Source: Thermodesulfobacteriota bacterium
GTDB taxonomy: Bacteria; Desulfobacterota; Desulfobacteria; Desulfobacterales; C00003060
DNA length: 24,702 nucleotides
Direction of reading: 5' to 3'
NCBI GenBank assembly: GCA_034189385.1
Contig: JAXHVD010000035.1
Span: 1 to 24,702 of the forward strand
Positions within the stretch are counted from its first letter, which is position 1; each line of letters opens with the position of its first letter. Position numbers and translations under genes: made by a program. The notes beneath the pieces were generated by a model, which was not told where the DNA came from, ran no database searches, and was given only the letters and a program-made list of their open reading frames with translations. Shown one piece after another: positions 6,283 to 24,252 of the stretch.

Positions 6283-6624
6283 TCAGAGGGCAAAGTGGAG
6301 CAGCAGGGCTCGGTTCACATCTTTCATGACCTCGTCGGGGAGGTGCCCGAGTTTCTCAAGGAGGCGCACCTTGTCCACCGCGCGGGTCTGGTTCACCATG
6401 ACCTTTGAGCGGCTACGGAGACCGCCGGTTCGGGCTGTGACTTCCACTTCAAAGGAATACACCCGGGTAACATTGGAAGTGATGGGGGCAATAGAGATGA
6501 TGGGGGAATGGGTGTTGTTGATGTCGTTTGAGACCACAAGTCCAGGACGCGTCTTTTTGGCCTCCGCACCAATGGTGGGATCAAAATTGACCAGAAAGAC
6601 ATCTCCTCGCCTAATCGATGCCAT
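6283..6624 (-). CDS. mazF: Type II TA toxin, PemK/MazF family endoribonuclease
   Basis: Likely true start ATG 6624 (MASIRRGDVFLVNFDPTIGAEAKKTRPGLVVSND), overlapping the antitoxin end. APITS and QTRAVDKVRL motifs. Confidence 0.95.
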   Translation of the reverse strand: MASIRRGDVFLVNFDPTIGAEAKKTRPGLVVSNDINNTHSPIISIAPITSNVTRVYSFEVEVTARTGGLRSRSKVMVNQTRAVDKVRLLEKLGHLPDEVMKDVNRALLLHFAL

Positions 6625-6829
6625 CGTCGATGGCGCCCTCCATTTCCGCATTGACGCGCCGCATGTCCGCCGAAGCCTCCTCGTACTCACGGGCTAATCG
6701 CTGGTTCCGAATCTCCTCAAGGGCGCGGGACACGGCCTCCTGAATGAATTTGCTCCTCTTTCTGGGCTTGACACTCCTGGAAAGCTCCTCCAAGAGATCC
6801 TCATGAAGTGTGATGTTGATGCGAGGCAA
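6611..6829 (-). CDS. Ribbon-helix-helix antitoxin (CopG/NdoAI-like)
   Basis: 72 aa; RINITL beta strand, RSKFIQEAV helix and acidic tail; directly upstream of and overlapping the toxin. Confidence 0.9.
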   Translation of the reverse strand: MPRINITLHEDLLEELSRSVKPRKRSKFIQEAVSRALEEIRNQRLAREYEEASADMRRVNAEMEGAIDDGID

Positions 6830-17705: not shown

Positions 17706-18950
17706 TTACTCGATGGTAAACTTGTGCTTCATTGTCTCCTCACCAAGCAGCTCGCCACCTGCGTAGTTGAGCATCTTCAAACTCACAATCACCTTTGCGG
17801 TGCCCGTCGCGTCGCCTACCCCGATGGTGTCAGACCACACCCAGTCATAAGTGGCTGCGGTTAGCGTCTCATCCTTGGTCAGGGCTAGCATCTTAACACC
17901 GGCCCCGTCTTTCGCCTTGGACTTGACGGCCTTCACATAGCAGCTGCCCCCGCCCAAGACGTGGAACCGCACGTTGTATTGGATGGGATCCCCAGAGGTA
18001 AACGTGTTCTTCACGGTGCCAGTGCCGCCTGTGGTCCACACATCTTCAACAATTAGCCTGAGTCCCTGATGAATCGCATCGACCGAATGGCACTCTGCGC
18101 AGTCCATCAGGCCGCACTGGGCCGGGTGCTCCTGAGCTGTAAACGGATCGGACACCTTAAAGTGACAGGTCTTGCAGCTCGCGGTGGCGTCTGGCAGCTG
18201 ATAAGGATTCTCCACGCCTGCATTTACCAGGTAATAATTGATCAATTCCGCCGTGTGTCCCGCCATGTAAGCACATGCCTTTCCACAACGATCGTTCTTG
18301 TGAGTGTTAGCGTAAGCGGACATATCATTCAAATCCACACCCGCTGCGTAACACCACTTGCTGATCGAGACATGGCAAAGGGGCGAATAGGCTGTGGTGT
18401 AGGCCAGGACCTCGTGGTCAGGTACCGGCTCGGGAGCGTAGCCGGTGTCCCAGCCGTAGGTGGGGTCCTCAAAGAGATCGTGAAGGCCTCTGGGTGGAAA
18501 CTCCGTCTCGCAGTAATGACCCAGCACTTCCGTTGCAAGCGGTGACCAAAGGTTCGCGAGACCTAAAGCAGAAATGCAGCCGTTGAGAATGCCACACAAT
18601 GTACCCCAACAGTTAATGCCTCCGCTTCCAAATTTGAACCAGCTAGTGGCACCACTTGGGATCTGATCCCAATCCGTTCCTTCGCCACTGTAAGCATCCT
18701 TAAATCCGTCAATAAGCCCCGATGCAGCCCCGTTCATGCAGCCGCCGTTTGCGTGGTAATGATACCAGGCATATTTCTTTACCATGTTGACGTCGAGCAG
18801 GTGGCTGCTATCGGCAGGCAAATAGCCCAGTGCAGCATGGGCAGTCTGGGGTAGCGTAAGCCCCCCCGCAAAGCCCGCTGTAAGAGCACCAGCTCCGACG
18901 ACACTTCTTTTCAAAAACCCTCTTCTACTAAGATCCAAATCTCTTGTCAT
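17706..18950 (-). CDS. Tat-exported split-Soret cytochrome c-like protein (C-GCAxxG-C-C-type domain, two CxxCH) with C-terminal beta-rich extension
   Basis: Tat motif SRRGFLK; GGCMNG, GTLCG, LCHVSISKWC and RCGK motifs; CKTCH and CAECH; SD AAAGGAG. Confidence 0.85.
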   Translation of the reverse strand: MTRDLDLSRRGFLKRSVVGAGALTAGFAGGLTLPQTAHAALGYLPADSSHLLDVNMVKKYAWYHYHANGGCMNGAASGLIDGFKDAYSGEGTDWDQIPSGATSWFKFGSGGINCWGTLCGILNGCISALGLANLWSPLATEVLGHYCETEFPPRGLHDLFEDPTYGWDTGYAPEPVPDHEVLAYTTAYSPLCHVSISKWCYAAGVDLNDMSAYANTHKNDRCGKACAYMAGHTAELINYYLVNAGVENPYQLPDATASCKTCHFKVSDPFTAQEHPAQCGLMDCAECHSVDAIHQGLRLIVEDVWTTGGTGTVKNTFTSGDPIQYNVRFHVLGGGSCYVKAVKSKAKDGAGVKMLALTKDETLTAATYDWVWSDTIGVGDATGTAKVIVSLKMLNYAGGELLGEETMKHKFTIE

Positions 18951-20152: not shown

Positions 20153-20353
20153 TCAAGTAAAAGGGCAAGCAAGTCTGCTGGCGGGGTAAAGATGTCTTTT
20201 TCCGCAAAAGGGGCAGGCAATCGTGAGTTGGACCTTGGCATCCCAGACCTTGTTTCCGGACTCATCGGTCTTGATGCCATGGTCTTTAATGATCCGATAG
20301 GCGTCAGTTTCAAAAGTCTGGTGCGTTTCAGGGCAGAAGAAGATGAGTTTCAT
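20153..20353 (-). CDS. Small Cys-rich protein (CP...CPFCG...H...CPF), possibly metal-binding
   Basis: 66 aa, SD TAAGG, zinc-ribbon-like Cys pattern. Confidence 0.7.
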   Translation of the reverse strand: MKLIFFCPETHQTFETDAYRIIKDHGIKTDESGNKVWDAKVQLTIACPFCGKRHLYPASRLACPFT

Positions 20354-20400
20354 TTACCTTATGTAACAGTGACCACCCAGAAAGGGCTCAAAAAGATTAA

Positions 20401-20600
20401 TAACGTTCAGAAGTTATGACATCGTCTATTTCTGAATAGACAACTACCGGATAGGGCGAATCGCTTCTCTTCGGCATCCAATGCCTTTAAGTAGCCCATA
20501 CCATTGCTGTGGATGGAAATGGCTGTATGCCTATGTTCAGCCATCCTCCCTATCCTTTTAACTGCCTGCGAAGACGCTTTGGCTCAACTTTTGAACGTTA
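20401..20600. repeat. ~200-nt structured non-coding element, copy 1 (candidate ncRNA or MITE)
   Basis: Terminal IR TAACGTTCAGAAGTT/AACTTTTGAACGTTA. Inner stems GGATAGGG/CCCTATCC, CATCCA/TGGATG and TGGCTG/CAGCCA. Aligns end to end with 23141-23335. Confidence 0.75.
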
Positions 20601-20608
20601 CCAAAAGC

Positions 20609-20646
20609 TTTGGCCCTGCAGGCCTGTTGGGCCCGCAAGGCCAAAT
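20609..20646. terminator. Hairpin, probable terminator for the porin transcript
   Basis: Minus strand TTTGGCCTTGCGGGCC-CAACA-GGCCTGCAGGGCCAAA followed by GCTTTT. Confidence 0.55.
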
Positions 20647-20662
20647 TAATTAGAATCTAGAA

Positions 20663-20841
20663 TGAATGAAATCGTATAAAGGCAAAGAATCCCTCTTTCT
20701 GTGACTCCTTCGAAAGCCGGGCACCGTGCCTCTGTTCAAGCCGCCAGGCGCAACCCTGAGCGCCATCCCGTAATGTCAGACAGTTAAAATGCCCCTGGAC
20801 CCCGGTTTTCACCGGGGTGACAACTTTCTACGAAACGGTCA
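20663..20841. repeat. Degenerate MITE/REP-like element
   Basis: Imperfect terminal IR TCGTATAAAG / CTTTCTACGA. Internal CTGGACCCCGGTTTTCACCGGGGTGAC resembles the 3' arm of the 999-1062 repeat. Confidence 0.5.
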
Positions 20842-20854
20842 GGATTGCATTGCA

Positions 20855-22015
20855 CTAGAATCCCACGCAGACCTGCAAGGTGAAGATTCCCCTGTCGTCT
20901 TTTTCATCGTTATCAGGATCGACATTCATGTAGTCGGCTGTTATCTTGCAGTTGTGTCCCTTCATATAATAGTTGACGCCGCCACTAAAGAAATCGGTCT
21001 CACTCTTGCCGTCCACATCCACTGTCTCGTAGCGGAAGTATGGCTGCAACTGCCCAGGGCCAAAGGATCCGGGCAGAAGATATCCGACATTGAAATACCA
21101 GTTCTCAGCATCGTCTCCAGCGGCTAGATCTGTATACATCTGCGGCTGCGTTTCCGTACATTTTTCGATATCGATATAGGCCGCCTCAAAGGTGACCGCA
21201 CCGTCTCCTAAGGGGTGGTCAAAGAAGACATCAGCGGTCCAGACCTCATTGTCTTCACCCTCAACACTGTTCAAGGTCAGGTCGTCTTGACTCTGGTAGC
21301 CCAGGCCCAGGCTCAAGACCTTTTTCTTACCCAGGTATGTCCCTTTATTAAACCAGCTGGTCTCCGGCTCCAGCAGGCTTAGCGAAAGCCGTCCCACAAA
21401 GCGCAAGTTGTCTTCGGGATTGTTGTCACCCTCAACCCCTTCGGAAATCATGAAACGGTATTGCAGGAGTCCGTCCATGGGATTCCCCCACAGGGTCACA
21501 CTGTCGTCTCGGCCCACCTTCTGGGCATAAAAGATGCCACCTCTGGAGCCTCCCTGCAAAAAGGGAAGATCCATGGTCAACATCGCCTTTGTTGACGTGG
21601 TGCCATAGTTGCGAGTGAGTGGAACATACATGCGGCCGAACTGAACCTTCAAGGCCTCATCTAAGTTTAGAGTAAGCCACAAGTCGCGCCAGGCGACACC
21701 GCTTCCCAGTCCTATTCCAGATTTGTCAAGCCCCTCCTGCCCGACCTTATCCGAAGCGATGTGGGTAAAGAAGCTCACATGCTCTGTCACCTGTCCCTTC
21801 AGATACAAATAGGCACGCCGGATCATGAAATCGTTTAAATCCTCATCACCCTTGCCATCCTCAACAAACTGATACATACCCTGCATCCAAATACCGATCT
21901 CCCCATGGGTTTGGTCATCAAGTTCCATTTTGATTCCCGCCCAGCATGGGTTCACCAATACCAGCACACACAAGAACGTCAGCATCATCTTGGCCAATAG
22001 CGCAACTCTCCTCAT
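20855..22015 (-). CDS. Phosphate-selective porin O/P family, ExtI-like (selenite/tellurite operon porin type)
   Basis: SD AGGAGG before ATG 22015; signal peptide; F.IRRAYL..KG, GRDDSVTLWG, LQPYFRYE and GVNYY.KGHN.K motifs; C-terminal Phe; downstream of yedF. The ExtI subfamily call rests on recalled similarity plus context. Confidence 0.75.
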   Translation of the reverse strand: MRRVALLAKMMLTFLCVLVLVNPCWAGIKMELDDQTHGEIGIWMQGMYQFVEDGKGDEDLNDFMIRRAYLYLKGQVTEHVSFFTHIASDKVGQEGLDKSGIGLGSGVAWRDLWLTLNLDEALKVQFGRMYVPLTRNYGTTSTKAMLTMDLPFLQGGSRGGIFYAQKVGRDDSVTLWGNPMDGLLQYRFMISEGVEGDNNPEDNLRFVGRLSLSLLEPETSWFNKGTYLGKKKVLSLGLGYQSQDDLTLNSVEGEDNEVWTADVFFDHPLGDGAVTFEAAYIDIEKCTETQPQMYTDLAAGDDAENWYFNVGYLLPGSFGPGQLQPYFRYETVDVDGKSETDFFSGGVNYYMKGHNCKITADYMNVDPDNDEKDDRGIFTLQVCVGF

Positions 22016-22204
22016 GCAACTTCCTCCTGTAGTAAGAATTTGGTAAACCTCAATAACAACCAACCTCTCAATACACTATTCCGGTTAGGTCAGCATCACC
22101 CCCTCTGGCGTGGCCCCAAGGGCCGGGTGCGTTAGAAGCGTCATGGGCCCTTTCAAAAGATCTCGTCTTTTGCATTCAATTCAGCCCGACCCTGAAGTGC
22201 GAGC

Positions 22205-22801
22205 TCACAGGCTAATTACTTTGTCCGCAACCTGCAGGCTTGTCACGATATCAAGCATGTTGGTGGTGACCCCCACCCGCTTCTGCTCCAACAGATCAAA
22301 ATGATTCAAGCAGGTGCCGCACACCAAGACGCTCACGCCATGAGCCTCTAAATGTTGGACGGCGGGCAGGGTTTCGGCCCCCTCTACTGTGAGCTTGACC
22401 CCACTGTTCAGAAAGACCAGCCTCCAAAGGGCCTCTCCCATCTCATTGAGGGTGTCGAGGTAATTGCGCATGAGCCCAGCTCCCAGAAGATCGTCCCCAG
22501 AACCCATAGTGTTCTTAGTAATCAGCACGAGTGTCTTCTGTAATGAAGACGCTGCCTCTGTCGCAGCAGGCACGTCAGCGCGTTCTTCGGACTTTGCCGC
22601 CTTGATCTCAAAGTCACGCCCCTCTTTATCAAGAGACGCTTCAAAGCCTTGGCTTTCAAAGAACCTCACGACGTTTTGGGCGGAGGCAGCATTGTCAACC
22701 ACCACCGTGAATTCCATGGCCTGAGGGTTGGATTCAACAAGATCTTTGGTTCTAAGTACCGGCTGGGGACAGGCAAGCCCCCGGCAATTCAATGTCTCCA
22801 T
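22205..22801 (-). CDS. yedF: Selenium metabolism protein YedF (SirA + DsrE domains)
   Basis: NCRGLACPQP, MGSGDDLLGAGLM, FLNSGVKL, CGTCL and TNMLDIV motifs. Confidence 0.93.
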   Translation of the reverse strand: METLNCRGLACPQPVLRTKDLVESNPQAMEFTVVVDNAASAQNVVRFFESQGFEASLDKEGRDFEIKAAKSEERADVPAATEAASSLQKTLVLITKNTMGSGDDLLGAGLMRNYLDTLNEMGEALWRLVFLNSGVKLTVEGAETLPAVQHLEAHGVSVLVCGTCLNHFDLLEQKRVGVTTNMLDIVTSLQVADKVISL

Positions 22802-22915
22802 CAAGCCCTCTCCTGTTCACGTTAGGCCTTCAGTTCTGGTGAGATAGGGATTACCGCACCTGCCAGCCTTTTCTTGTAAAAAAACAGCCTCATTCCTGTA
22901 ACATTTCTACGTAAG

Positions 22916-22968
22916 TGTCAAATAGGTAATATCGATTATATCAATTCTCATACATTGATTATCTCAAT
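22916..22968 (-). promoter_or_regulatory. LysR-type operator/promoter of yedF-porin
   Basis: Boxes at 22954-22968 (ATTGA-N5-TCAAT), 22931-22945 and 22922-22936; the last abuts TTGACA (22916-22921, minus strand). Confidence 0.75.
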
Positions 22969-23140
22969 ATCTGTTTGTGGCCATTGGAGACCGTCTTTGA
23001 GTTCACCTACTGGACCCAAAGGCGCCTTGCCTTGGGATGCTGCGACAACACCCCTGAGGCTCCTTCCAGGGGATGTCGTTGCTGCCGCCCCTTCCGGGCA
23101 GCCCAGCGCAGTGTGTTTTGTAAATGGGCCGATTATTGGG

Positions 23141-23335
23141 CAATGTTTAGAGGTCGCCACAGTGGATTTTTGAATAGACCTCGGGGAGAGGGATCATCTC
23201 TTCTCTTTGCCATCCAATGCCTTTGAGATGCAGTGCGATTTCTCTAGGTGGAAATGGCTGTGTCCCTGCGCCCAGCCACCAATCCCGTCCCCTTGAAGGT
23301 CTGCCATGGAAGTTTGCCTCAACTTTTGAACATTA
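23141..23335. repeat. ~195-nt structured non-coding element, copy 2
   Basis: Shares TGAATAGAC, CTTCTCTT, CATCCAATGCCTTT, TGGAAATGGCTGT, CAGCCA and CTCAACTTTTGAAC with copy 1. Stems are retained despite sequence change. Confidence 0.75.
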
Positions 23336-23348
23336 CCAATTGTTTGTG

Positions 23349-23376
23349 TTGACAAGCAATTAGTTCATGATAAGAA
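23349..23376 (+). promoter_or_regulatory. Possible sigma-70 promoter of the sdh operon
   Basis: TTGACA-16 nt-TAAGAA with an extended TG. Confidence 0.4.
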
Positions 23377-23424
23377 AGGGCGCCAAAAAGACGGGTTTCG
23401 CCTTGTCCACACAGGGAGAATGAC

Positions 23425-24252
23425 ATGGACATATCCGCACAAAAGGCTCGCGTTGAGACATACCTGGCAGGACTGATACCACGGTCTGAGAAGCTGACCT
23501 ACTATGCGCAATCCCACGGTTGGGGATTTGTCATGACTTGGGCCCATAAGGTCACAGGCCTGATGCTGGTCCTTTACATGTTTTTCCATATCATCACCCT
23601 TTCAGGTCTCTATGATCCTGCCGGCTTTGCTTCCAAGATGAAGTTTTTGGATAACTTTCTCTTTGGCTTTTTGGAGTGGACCCTTGCCGTGCCCGTCATC
23701 TTTCATGCCCTCAACGGGACCAGGCTCATACTCTACGAGATCTTCCGCGTGAGGAACGACGCGCTTATGATCCGTTGGGTCCTCTTGCTAAGCGCCTTGT
23801 ACGTGCTCACATTGGGCCTGTTCATGGTGATGGGCAATCAACAGGTTTCTGTGGGCGTTTTTTGGCTTACCGTTACGATGGCTGGGATGATCACTGCCGC
23901 CATTGTGTATCAGAAAGTTTGGCCTACAAGGAATGTGGTGTGGTGGAAGCTTCAGAGGATCTCAGGGGCCTTTCTTCTCCCCATGGTCTCAGGACACATG
24001 TTCTTCATGCACTTGAGCTACAAAATGGGACACGATGTGGACACCATCATGGCCAGGATGTCTGGTATAGGCATGAAGCTGGTGGACATGGTTTTTGTCA
24101 TCACTGTCTTTTTTCATGCCGGTTTTGGCGTCTACACCATCATCGTTGACTACGTAGACGATCGCCGTGCACGGCTCGGACTCTCGGTATTGACGGTCCT
24201 CATGATGACGGTTTTTGCTTATGCGGGAGTCAAGCTAGTTTTTAGCATCTAG
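23425..24252 (+). CDS. Succinate dehydrogenase/fumarate reductase cytochrome b anchor, SdhC-like and SdhD-like halves in one ORF
   Basis: HKVTG...HII and FHALNG in the first half; LQRISG...GHM and FHAGFG...DY in the second half; precedes the flavoprotein. Confidence 0.85.
   Translation: MDISAQKARVETYLAGLIPRSEKLTYYAQSHGWGFVMTWAHKVTGLMLVLYMFFHIITLSGLYDPAGFASKMKFLDNFLFGFLEWTLAVPVIFHALNGTRLILYEIFRVRNDALMIRWVLLLSALYVLTLGLFMVMGNQQVSVGVFWLTVTMAGMITAAIVYQKVWPTRNVVWWKLQRISGAFLLPMVSGHMFFMHLSYKMGHDVDTIMARMSGIGMKLVDMVFVITVFFHAGFGVYTIIVDYVDDRRARLGLSVLTVLMMTVFAYAGVKLVFSI

Follow-up and report, generated by a model that had tools for sequence, protein, structure and literature searches.

Bacterial miniature inverted-repeat transposable elements (MITEs) with stable folds have been reviewed, among them Chunjie of Geobacter uraniireducens and bcr1 of the Bacillus cereus group, the latter with compensatory changes (Delihas 2011, PMC3184786). 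Here we describe two non-coding elements, copies A and B, that flank the genes extI and yedF in a 24,702-nt stretch of Thermodesulfobacteriota DNA (the window), whose own genome, labelled G000, is 90% complete. According to the accessible part of that review, Chunjie resembles them in being deltaproteobacterial and in its length (178-235 bp), 21-bp ends and stable predicted fold, but it carries 9-bp repeats against 8-bp repeats here, a comparison made by description and not by sequence; the same part mentions no core common to several transposase families. Like the window family, bcr1 is mobile, and compensatory changes preserve its fold, although some copies no longer have it (PMC3184786, in part). 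It differs in its 5-bp repeats and in having been shown to be transcribed, whereas the window family is known from sequence and its fold is common to several types of ends.

The transposases that bear on the window family belong to ISH6 (p-MULT 2), as far as the available part of Guerillot et al. (2014, PMC3942029) describes it. ISH6 duplicates a AANATNTT target, one member (ISDesp5) occurs in an uncultured Desulfobacterium, and a circular intermediate has been suggested for these Mutator-like families. The ends of the window MITE are identical over 20 bases to those of elements whose proteins pass the ISH6 model NF041731, and it shares the 8-bp duplication and the AT-rich AA..TT target; unlike them, it is 204 bp long, has no transposase and is unrelated in its interior beyond the ends. 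A further point of comparison is given by the NTS/Ssn-related motifs (Chenal et al. 2025, PMC11893778, in part), which are also multi-copy hairpins with a possible single-strand role but measure 20-50 nt, against about 110 nt for the folded core of the elements studied here.

Dispersed copies and their autonomous relatives

We consider it practically certain that each of the two elements arose by an insertion of its own and that what inserted was a non-autonomous transposon of the ISH6 family, a MITE. An earlier reading of the window from its letters only (the sequence-only reading) had noticed two diverged copies in the same orientation, which it judged non-coding, and both observations hold: the copies align over their full length with 139/204 identical columns (68%), within limits that had to be corrected to those of Table 1. 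The two are not twins, as had been proposed, since an iterated profile search of G000 gave 98 matches at E ≤0.001, 36 of them end-to-end. In an alignment, these 36 copies measure 162-206 bp, have sharp ends and form two subfamilies, and the terminal inverted repeat of the family begins RGTAACGTTCA. Direct repeats matching at 7/8 positions or better flank 23 of the 36 (14 perfectly), against 2.1% of 1260 mismatched flank pairs, and the signal peaks at exactly 8 bp. The target reads AA-N4-TT: in the right flanks, A occupies positions 1 and 2 in 35 and 31 of the 36 copies, and T occupies positions 7 and 8 in 28 and 26. According to a crude call of open reading frames (ORFs), 35/36 copies lie outside called ORFs.

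Empty sites were sought with 29 filled elements and their flanks, four of them G000's own, the metagenome flanks being mapped to G000. The orthologous sites of two insertions, L115 and L183, proved to be empty there and to contain a single copy of the target; seven mapped sites are filled in G000 as well, by a whole or a deleted copy. The family thus combines ends shared with insertion sequences, a target duplication, short non-coding dispersed copies and empty orthologous sites, and many copies in unrelated contexts with target duplications are what the sequence-only reading itself had said would identify a MITE. Plasmid and phage collections yielded no match, and two viral matches to the core motif were dropped, being located in unrelated sequence. 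As judged by its lower identity to any other copy (Table 1), copy B is the older insertion. It is kept at the same site in a contig of metagenome run X2 (record 14; 41 differences in 535 letters). Record 11 of the same run joins 20355 to 20854 via 328 other letters and may represent an empty allele of copy A.

Searching species-representative genomes for the 20-base end returned 69 stretches, from records mostly of Desulfobacterales, Desulfobacteraceae or Deltaproteobacteria. Four of them hold elements of 1482-1535 bp bounded by this end and by 8-bp duplications. The 459-aa protein of one, L083, reaches 457 bits, over a cut-off of 240, on NF041731, the model for ISH6 family transposases, and the other three proteins, one of them interrupted, are 65-92% identical to it; L028 and L078 are, with L083, full-length ISH6 insertion sequences. 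These autonomous elements have only the ends in common with the MITE, their interiors being unrelated. The 8-bp AA-N4-TT target of the window family fits the 8-9 bp, AANATNTT-like duplication of ISH6. Judging from the family, an ISH6 transposase, a Mutator-like DDE enzyme, would bind both ends in trans and move the element, probably via a circular intermediate. Copies would then insert between genes in random orientation, duplicate an 8-bp AA-N4-TT target and decay, and the products of these last steps are observed. What emerges is a clean ISH6-type MITE family with an autonomous partner, a target rule and empty sites.

Table 1. Positions of the two elements, their parts and neighbouring features in the window.
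Feature	Position	Strand	Remarks
MITE copy A	20399..20602	.	204 bp; ~90% identity to nearest genome copies
Left target duplication of copy A	20391..20398	+	8 bp; 7/8 match to 20603-20610
Right target duplication of copy A	20603..20610	+	8 bp; overlaps T-run of the extI terminator-like site
Degenerate terminal inverted repeat, copy A	20399..20415	+	
Well-kept terminal inverted repeat, copy A	20582..20602	-	first 20 bases equal the ends of autonomous ISH6-family elements
Folded core of copy A	20446..20558	-	model R1 match, 106.6 bits
Closing helix arms, copy A core	~20448-20464 and ~20540-20556	-	
Invariant segments, copy A core	~20465-20488 and ~20518-20539	-	
Variable middle, copy A core	20489-20517	-	
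MITE copy B	23139..23337	.	199 bp; old, decayed; ≤70% identity to any other copy
Folded core of copy B	23182..23293	-	model R1 match, 67.9 bits
Terminator-like hairpin 3' of extI	20609..20645	-	consensus scan only; copy A inserted just behind
Conserved 66-aa protein of no family (bystander)	20153..20353	-	adjoins extI without MITE in two relatives
Porin ExtI (bystander)	20855..22015	-	NF040900, 165 bits (cut-off 150)
Selenium metabolism protein YedF (bystander)	22205..22804	-	TIGR03527, 215 bits (cut-off 110)
Succinate dehydrogenase membrane subunit (bystander)	23425..24252	+	copy B 87 bp upstream

A folded core shared between end types

Read on the minus strand, the core comprises a closing helix of ~17 bp, an internal loop rich in purines, two further helices, of 5+2 bp and of 3 bp, and a variable middle of 23-25 nt. 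RNAalifold returned the same helices unprompted from 39 diverse rows. In this 39-row alignment 87.9% of the cells are paired, against 78.5% after shuffling and 37-49% in slid registers, a control that ignores relatedness, and 17 of the 20 outer pairs have changed on both sides. On a tree of 146 cores, built after four out-of-register rows had been left out, both sides of closing-helix pairs changed on one and the same branch 43.7 times. With shuffled partners the figure was 12.0 (maximum 24.5), and none of the 200 shuffles in each of 10 reconstructions reached the observed value. A stricter column test by simulation on the tree placed closing-helix pairs at six of the top seven positions, the best at E 0.067 and none below 0.05. 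The long G/C-rich helix that had been predicted from the two copies is real, and by the paired-cell and same-branch counts it co-varies throughout the family. Being nearly invariant, the inner helices provide little covariation evidence, apart from one A-U/C-G switch (79 and 53 of 146 rows).

The near-invariant segments that had been pointed out are real as well: the subfamily consensuses differ at 0 and 1 positions in them against 6-11 per spacer, and taken together at 1 position in the two segments against 23 in the spacers plus the middle. Across the family these two segments pair with each other; the supposedly invariant UGGCUG/CAGCCA stem did not survive, its 3' partner being present in 4/150 distinct cores. 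Of the idea that each copy folds, the part concerning copy A stands, with folds far better than those of shuffled sequences on both strands (z -6.05 and -6.73), and the part concerning copy B falls, its fold not standing out from theirs (z -1.18 and -0.23). In the internal loop, for which a loop-E-like reading was considered, the variable base on the loop strand is U in 55, A in 48, C in 35 and G in 12 of 150 cores. Rfam, 6S included, gave no match at either copy, in agreement with the sequence-only reading, which had recognised no known family; one chance match occurs elsewhere in the window (E 0.96). The core is also unmatched in Rfam at six loci spanning five end types.

A preference for the minus strand of this structured, co-varying interior had likewise been noticed, for the inner stems, and is confirmed. 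Changes that turn Watson-Crick pairs into G-U pairs amount to 66 events on the minus strand against 33 on the plus strand, and the same strand is preferred by DNA energies in 31/33 copies and by RNA energies in 23/33; since DNA energies prefer it at least as strongly, the preference fits RNA and single-stranded DNA alike. It is not seen in the small sets of end types C, D and E. Among the G000 copies chosen with the whole-element profile, shared variants number 58 in 160 sites of the core, 117 in 170 of the spacers and 46 in 76 of the ends. Changes private to single copies number 31 in 80 sites of the core and 49 in 86 of the spacers, a mild shortfall in the core that is not significant (p 0.09). 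This pattern fits constraint on source lineages, or gene conversion among cores, over a host function at each locus.

In one element, L042, the core is inverted between perfect 17-bp arms, and by eye unrelated cores of other ISH6-type MITEs also occur in both orientations. Perfect stems with inverted loops are a footprint of template switching during replication, which can produce compensatory changes in one step (PMC8794818, in the part available). A functional claim for the core is limited both by this source of compensatory changes, which needs no selection, and by the mild, non-significant shortfall of private changes. In other genomes, ISH6-ended MITEs of 301-373 bp contain further cores, which inner inverted repeats enclose in either orientation (L029 versus L065, L052 versus L066).

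At least five types of MITE ends enclose the core of ~110 nt, and three of these types are tied to ISH6, IS4-type and IS66-type transposases. Model R1, whose training set contained both window copies, finds 69 core matches in G000, where another MITE contains the core as well; this one is longer, has ends of a different kind and, by eye, is flanked by duplications of ~7 bp. These other ends also bound autonomous elements of 1596-1597 bp, L268 (genome G034) and L269 (G430); the protein of L268 scores 321 bits on NF049925 (IS4 family, cut-off 250), and these elements share only the ends with the core-bearing MITEs. Metagenome loci and relatives add three further end types, each with 8-bp duplications. 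One of the three bounds L455 (G405), a 1916-bp insertion sequence of IS66 type with a single ORF, whose protein reaches 64 bits on PF03050 (cut-off 23.1) and 122 bits on NF033517, under the cut-off of 180. For end types C and E, one of which is a minimal form of 136 bp, no autonomous partner was found. End type E may be of IS66 type, to judge by its GTAA start and 8-bp duplication, both traits of that family.

Altogether the core was located at 114 metagenome loci or more, and the set used here comprises 150 distinct cores, which motif rules assign to the five types (73, 55, 3, 4 and 7), with 8 unassigned. Most cores outside G000 were located via the invariant segments, so that the invariance of these segments there is partly by construction. 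With model R1 the core was detected in 18/37 genomes of the genus group (1 to 66 matches each), in none of the remaining 19 and in 0/118 genomes of other genera of the order; its motif was found in 0/300 genomes at phylum level. This distribution does not support the captured gene of a conserved host RNA. An origin as the tail of a transposase gene was rejected: nothing beyond the ends is common to the MITEs and the autonomous elements of ISH6 and IS4 type, and a B-type copy translated in one frame contained nothing recognisable.

Paired ends in G000 enclose the core in 70/70 cases for the ISH6 type and 16/18 for the IS4 type. In other genomes these two kinds of ends surround different cores. 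One of them, a second and unrelated folded core, is likewise common to both kinds, being present in ISH6-ended and IS4-type-ended MITEs (L021, L031, L033, L047, L050 and others of 286-287 bp; L275 and L276). Elements of mixed build occur in G000 itself: in a chimera at C5:8171-8439 the left end is of IS4 type and the right end of ISH6 type, with the junction inside the core, and in two compound elements an ISH6-type MITE is inserted into the core of the other family. The same compound element was seen at C1:354578-354781 and C17:36635-36838, the left target differing from the right at both loci by three C-to-T changes. Core-bearing interiors stand in tandem at C9:31649-32230 and C9:38512-38907 (~224 and 213 bp apart), and several cores have their variable middle interrupted by a third repeat of ~200 bp (C12:191071, C19:13256, C23:23870, C9:268). 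In another genome, G360, L462 and L463 are strongly folded 348-bp MITEs with E-type ends and 8-bp duplications whose interior is unrelated to the ~110-nt core; their end occurs 60 times in that genome.

In a literature search that covered few subscription papers and did not extend to ISfinder, nothing relevant came to light on a core common to several MITE or transposase families or on MITEs of this phylum. We regard the window elements as members of a new family of ISH6-type MITEs. The family is of an ordinary kind, and its shared core, whose function is unproven, appears to be undescribed.

Possible roles of the core

Taken as a whole, the account of ISH6-type MITEs with the core as a passenger is one that we hold with high confidence. 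As regards the core on its own, we lean, by a modest preference, towards a passenger hairpin that template switching and recombination maintain together with selection among the source copies. Such a core would most likely act as a single-stranded fold without a locus-specific host function. Replication template switching would largely keep its closing helix paired. Nested insertion and recombination would carry it from one end type to another, compound and chimeric elements being observed, and selection among those source copies from which new bursts start would preserve the two invariant segments of the core.

Several observations weigh against this account. Template switching leaves unexplained both the near-invariant inner segments around a free middle and the 2:1 excess of G-U/G-T on one strand (66 versus 33), and the rate at which ISH6-type and IS4-type ends enclose the core exceeds what a purely neutral passenger needs. 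As for the first entry of the core into each end type, an origin as the remnant of a nested 136-bp element seemed plausible on inspection but was not supported: the test for remnants of this smallest element's ends inside the larger elements failed, the flanks of types A, B, C and D falling within the null of a weight-matrix test. On the side of mobility, the flanks of copy B match at 5/8 positions, and no ISH6 transposase over the cut-off was found in G000 or in the 37 genomes of the genus group, two weak matches to the ISH6 model in G000 being IS256. We therefore infer the driver from other genomes; either the family is dormant or its driver is unassembled.

A tentative alternative holds that the MITE carries the core as a working nucleic-acid module, RNA or single-stranded DNA of the strand with the purine-rich loop, that binds a host or mobile-element protein. 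Such a core would raise the spread of its carriers or their tolerance, and unrelated transposase families would each have acquired it for that reason. This alternative draws on the occurrence in at least five end types, on the co-change in the closing helix (43.7 against 12.0, with 87.9% paired), on the inner A-U/C-G switch, on a lower variant density in the core than in spacers or ends, on the strand bias of 66 to 33 and on the second, unrelated core that is also common to ISH6-type and IS4-type ends elsewhere. It is weakened by the column test, in which no pair fell below E 0.05 (best 0.067), and by a strand preference that is equally strong with DNA energies and does not appear in the few cores of types C, D and E. 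Moreover, the invariance outside G000 is partly built into the search, the core is dispensable (0/118 genomes of other genera and 18/37 of the genus group), and gene conversion among ~69 core copies could homogenise it. One form of this possibility, in our view about equally doubtful, is a portable, strand-specific module of ~110 nt captured by ISH6, IS4-type, IS66-type and at least one more kind of MITE, for example to bind a lineage-specific protein, other lineages doing likewise with other cores. If it were true, interchangeable ends plus a selected core would be a general design rule of bacterial MITEs. The presence of one core in ends read by three unrelated transposases means that ends and core can be varied independently of each other, which makes it testable whether the interior of a bacterial MITE has a function.

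It is improbable that the core is the recognition hairpin of a single-strand enzyme, such as a nuclease of the Ssn motif or a REP/IS200-type HUH transposase, moved or maintained apart from the DDE ends. A sequence-invariant, strand-asymmetric hairpin with a freely co-varying stem would suit such an enzyme. However, the published pattern of the Ssn-related motif (SRM) matches 0/150 cores and 0/36 full copies, no nuclease or transposase family, GIY-YIG genes included, recurs beside 268 core sites, and the resolved ends are of DDE type with duplications around the core. Apart from the core, a palindromic repeat at ~20726-20833, between copy A and extI, contains an SRM match on the minus strand at 20795-20822; BLAST gives 18 matches to this region genome-wide, and its borders show loose read ends. 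Over the whole genome the SRM count is 46, close to the 33 and 36 of shuffled sequence.

The selenium genes and other features of the window

The sequence-only reading had also considered that a recombining pair of elements mobilised the porin gene together with yedF. That copies A and B are the ends of a composite element that imported extI-yedF is very unlikely in our judgement. The two copies do lie in the same orientation 2.7 kb apart, and MITE-bounded cargo has a precedent in IMU (described in the available part of PMC3184786). Nevertheless, copy A has a 7/8 duplication of its own, the outer flanks of the pair match at 5/8 positions (null mean 3.8), and the copies are of unequal age (90% against 70% identity to their nearest kin). 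The gene junctions also exist without the element: the gene of the 66-aa protein and extI adjoin one another without a MITE in two relatives, G009 and G052 (105 and 152 bp apart), and extI and sdhC are linked divergently in a third, G041. Random placement of the 36 copies yields a pair closer than 3 kb with probability 0.59, and two such pairs exist. In three of the six relatives' loci that carry extI and/or yedF, yedF precedes extI.

Orientation and neighbourhood bear on the remaining proposal, a riboswitch or small RNA dedicated to the selenium genes. Among the 36 copies the loop strand runs with the upstream gene in 17 cases and against it in 19; for the downstream gene there are 18 cases of each. 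No neighbour family recurs among 1140 ORFs near the 268 core sites beyond shared loci and common regulators, the biggest cluster consisting of apparently spurious frames across the repeat itself. The regulator is the least credible of the explanations: two copies flank extI-yedF, yedE is also in the window and copy A folds strongly, but the 36 copies stand in unrelated contexts and random orientation, copy A lies behind the terminator-like site of extI, copy B is decayed, and none of the six relatives' loci has a copy. Given the random orientation and the left-hand gene junction without the element in relatives, neither a selenium riboswitch nor a porin-yedF composite holds. The selenium lead was thus false, and MITE copies together with template switching can mimic a co-varying RNA motif. 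The extended -10 that had been suggested at the end of the elements turned out to be the terminal inverted repeat plus one flanking base; a promoter consensus scan of 20300-23450 gave two sites against 2.6 expected, neither on an element. The window contains no tRNA or tmRNA.

Other features of the window were noted in passing. The 66-aa protein has two CxxC-like groups of cysteines and no Pfam or NCBIfam match, and it is 59-71% identical in three relatives, in two of which its gene stands beside extI. On the minus strand, 17706-18950 encodes a 414-aa protein exported by the twin-arginine (Tat) route, with a weak match to split-Soret cytochrome c, far under the cut-off, and an additional C-terminal part with CxxCH motifs; the segment 18230-18380 has three near-full-length matches in the genome. 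Finally, 6283-6829 (minus strand) is a PemK/MazF-like toxin gene, and a small ORF upstream of it resembles an antitoxin.

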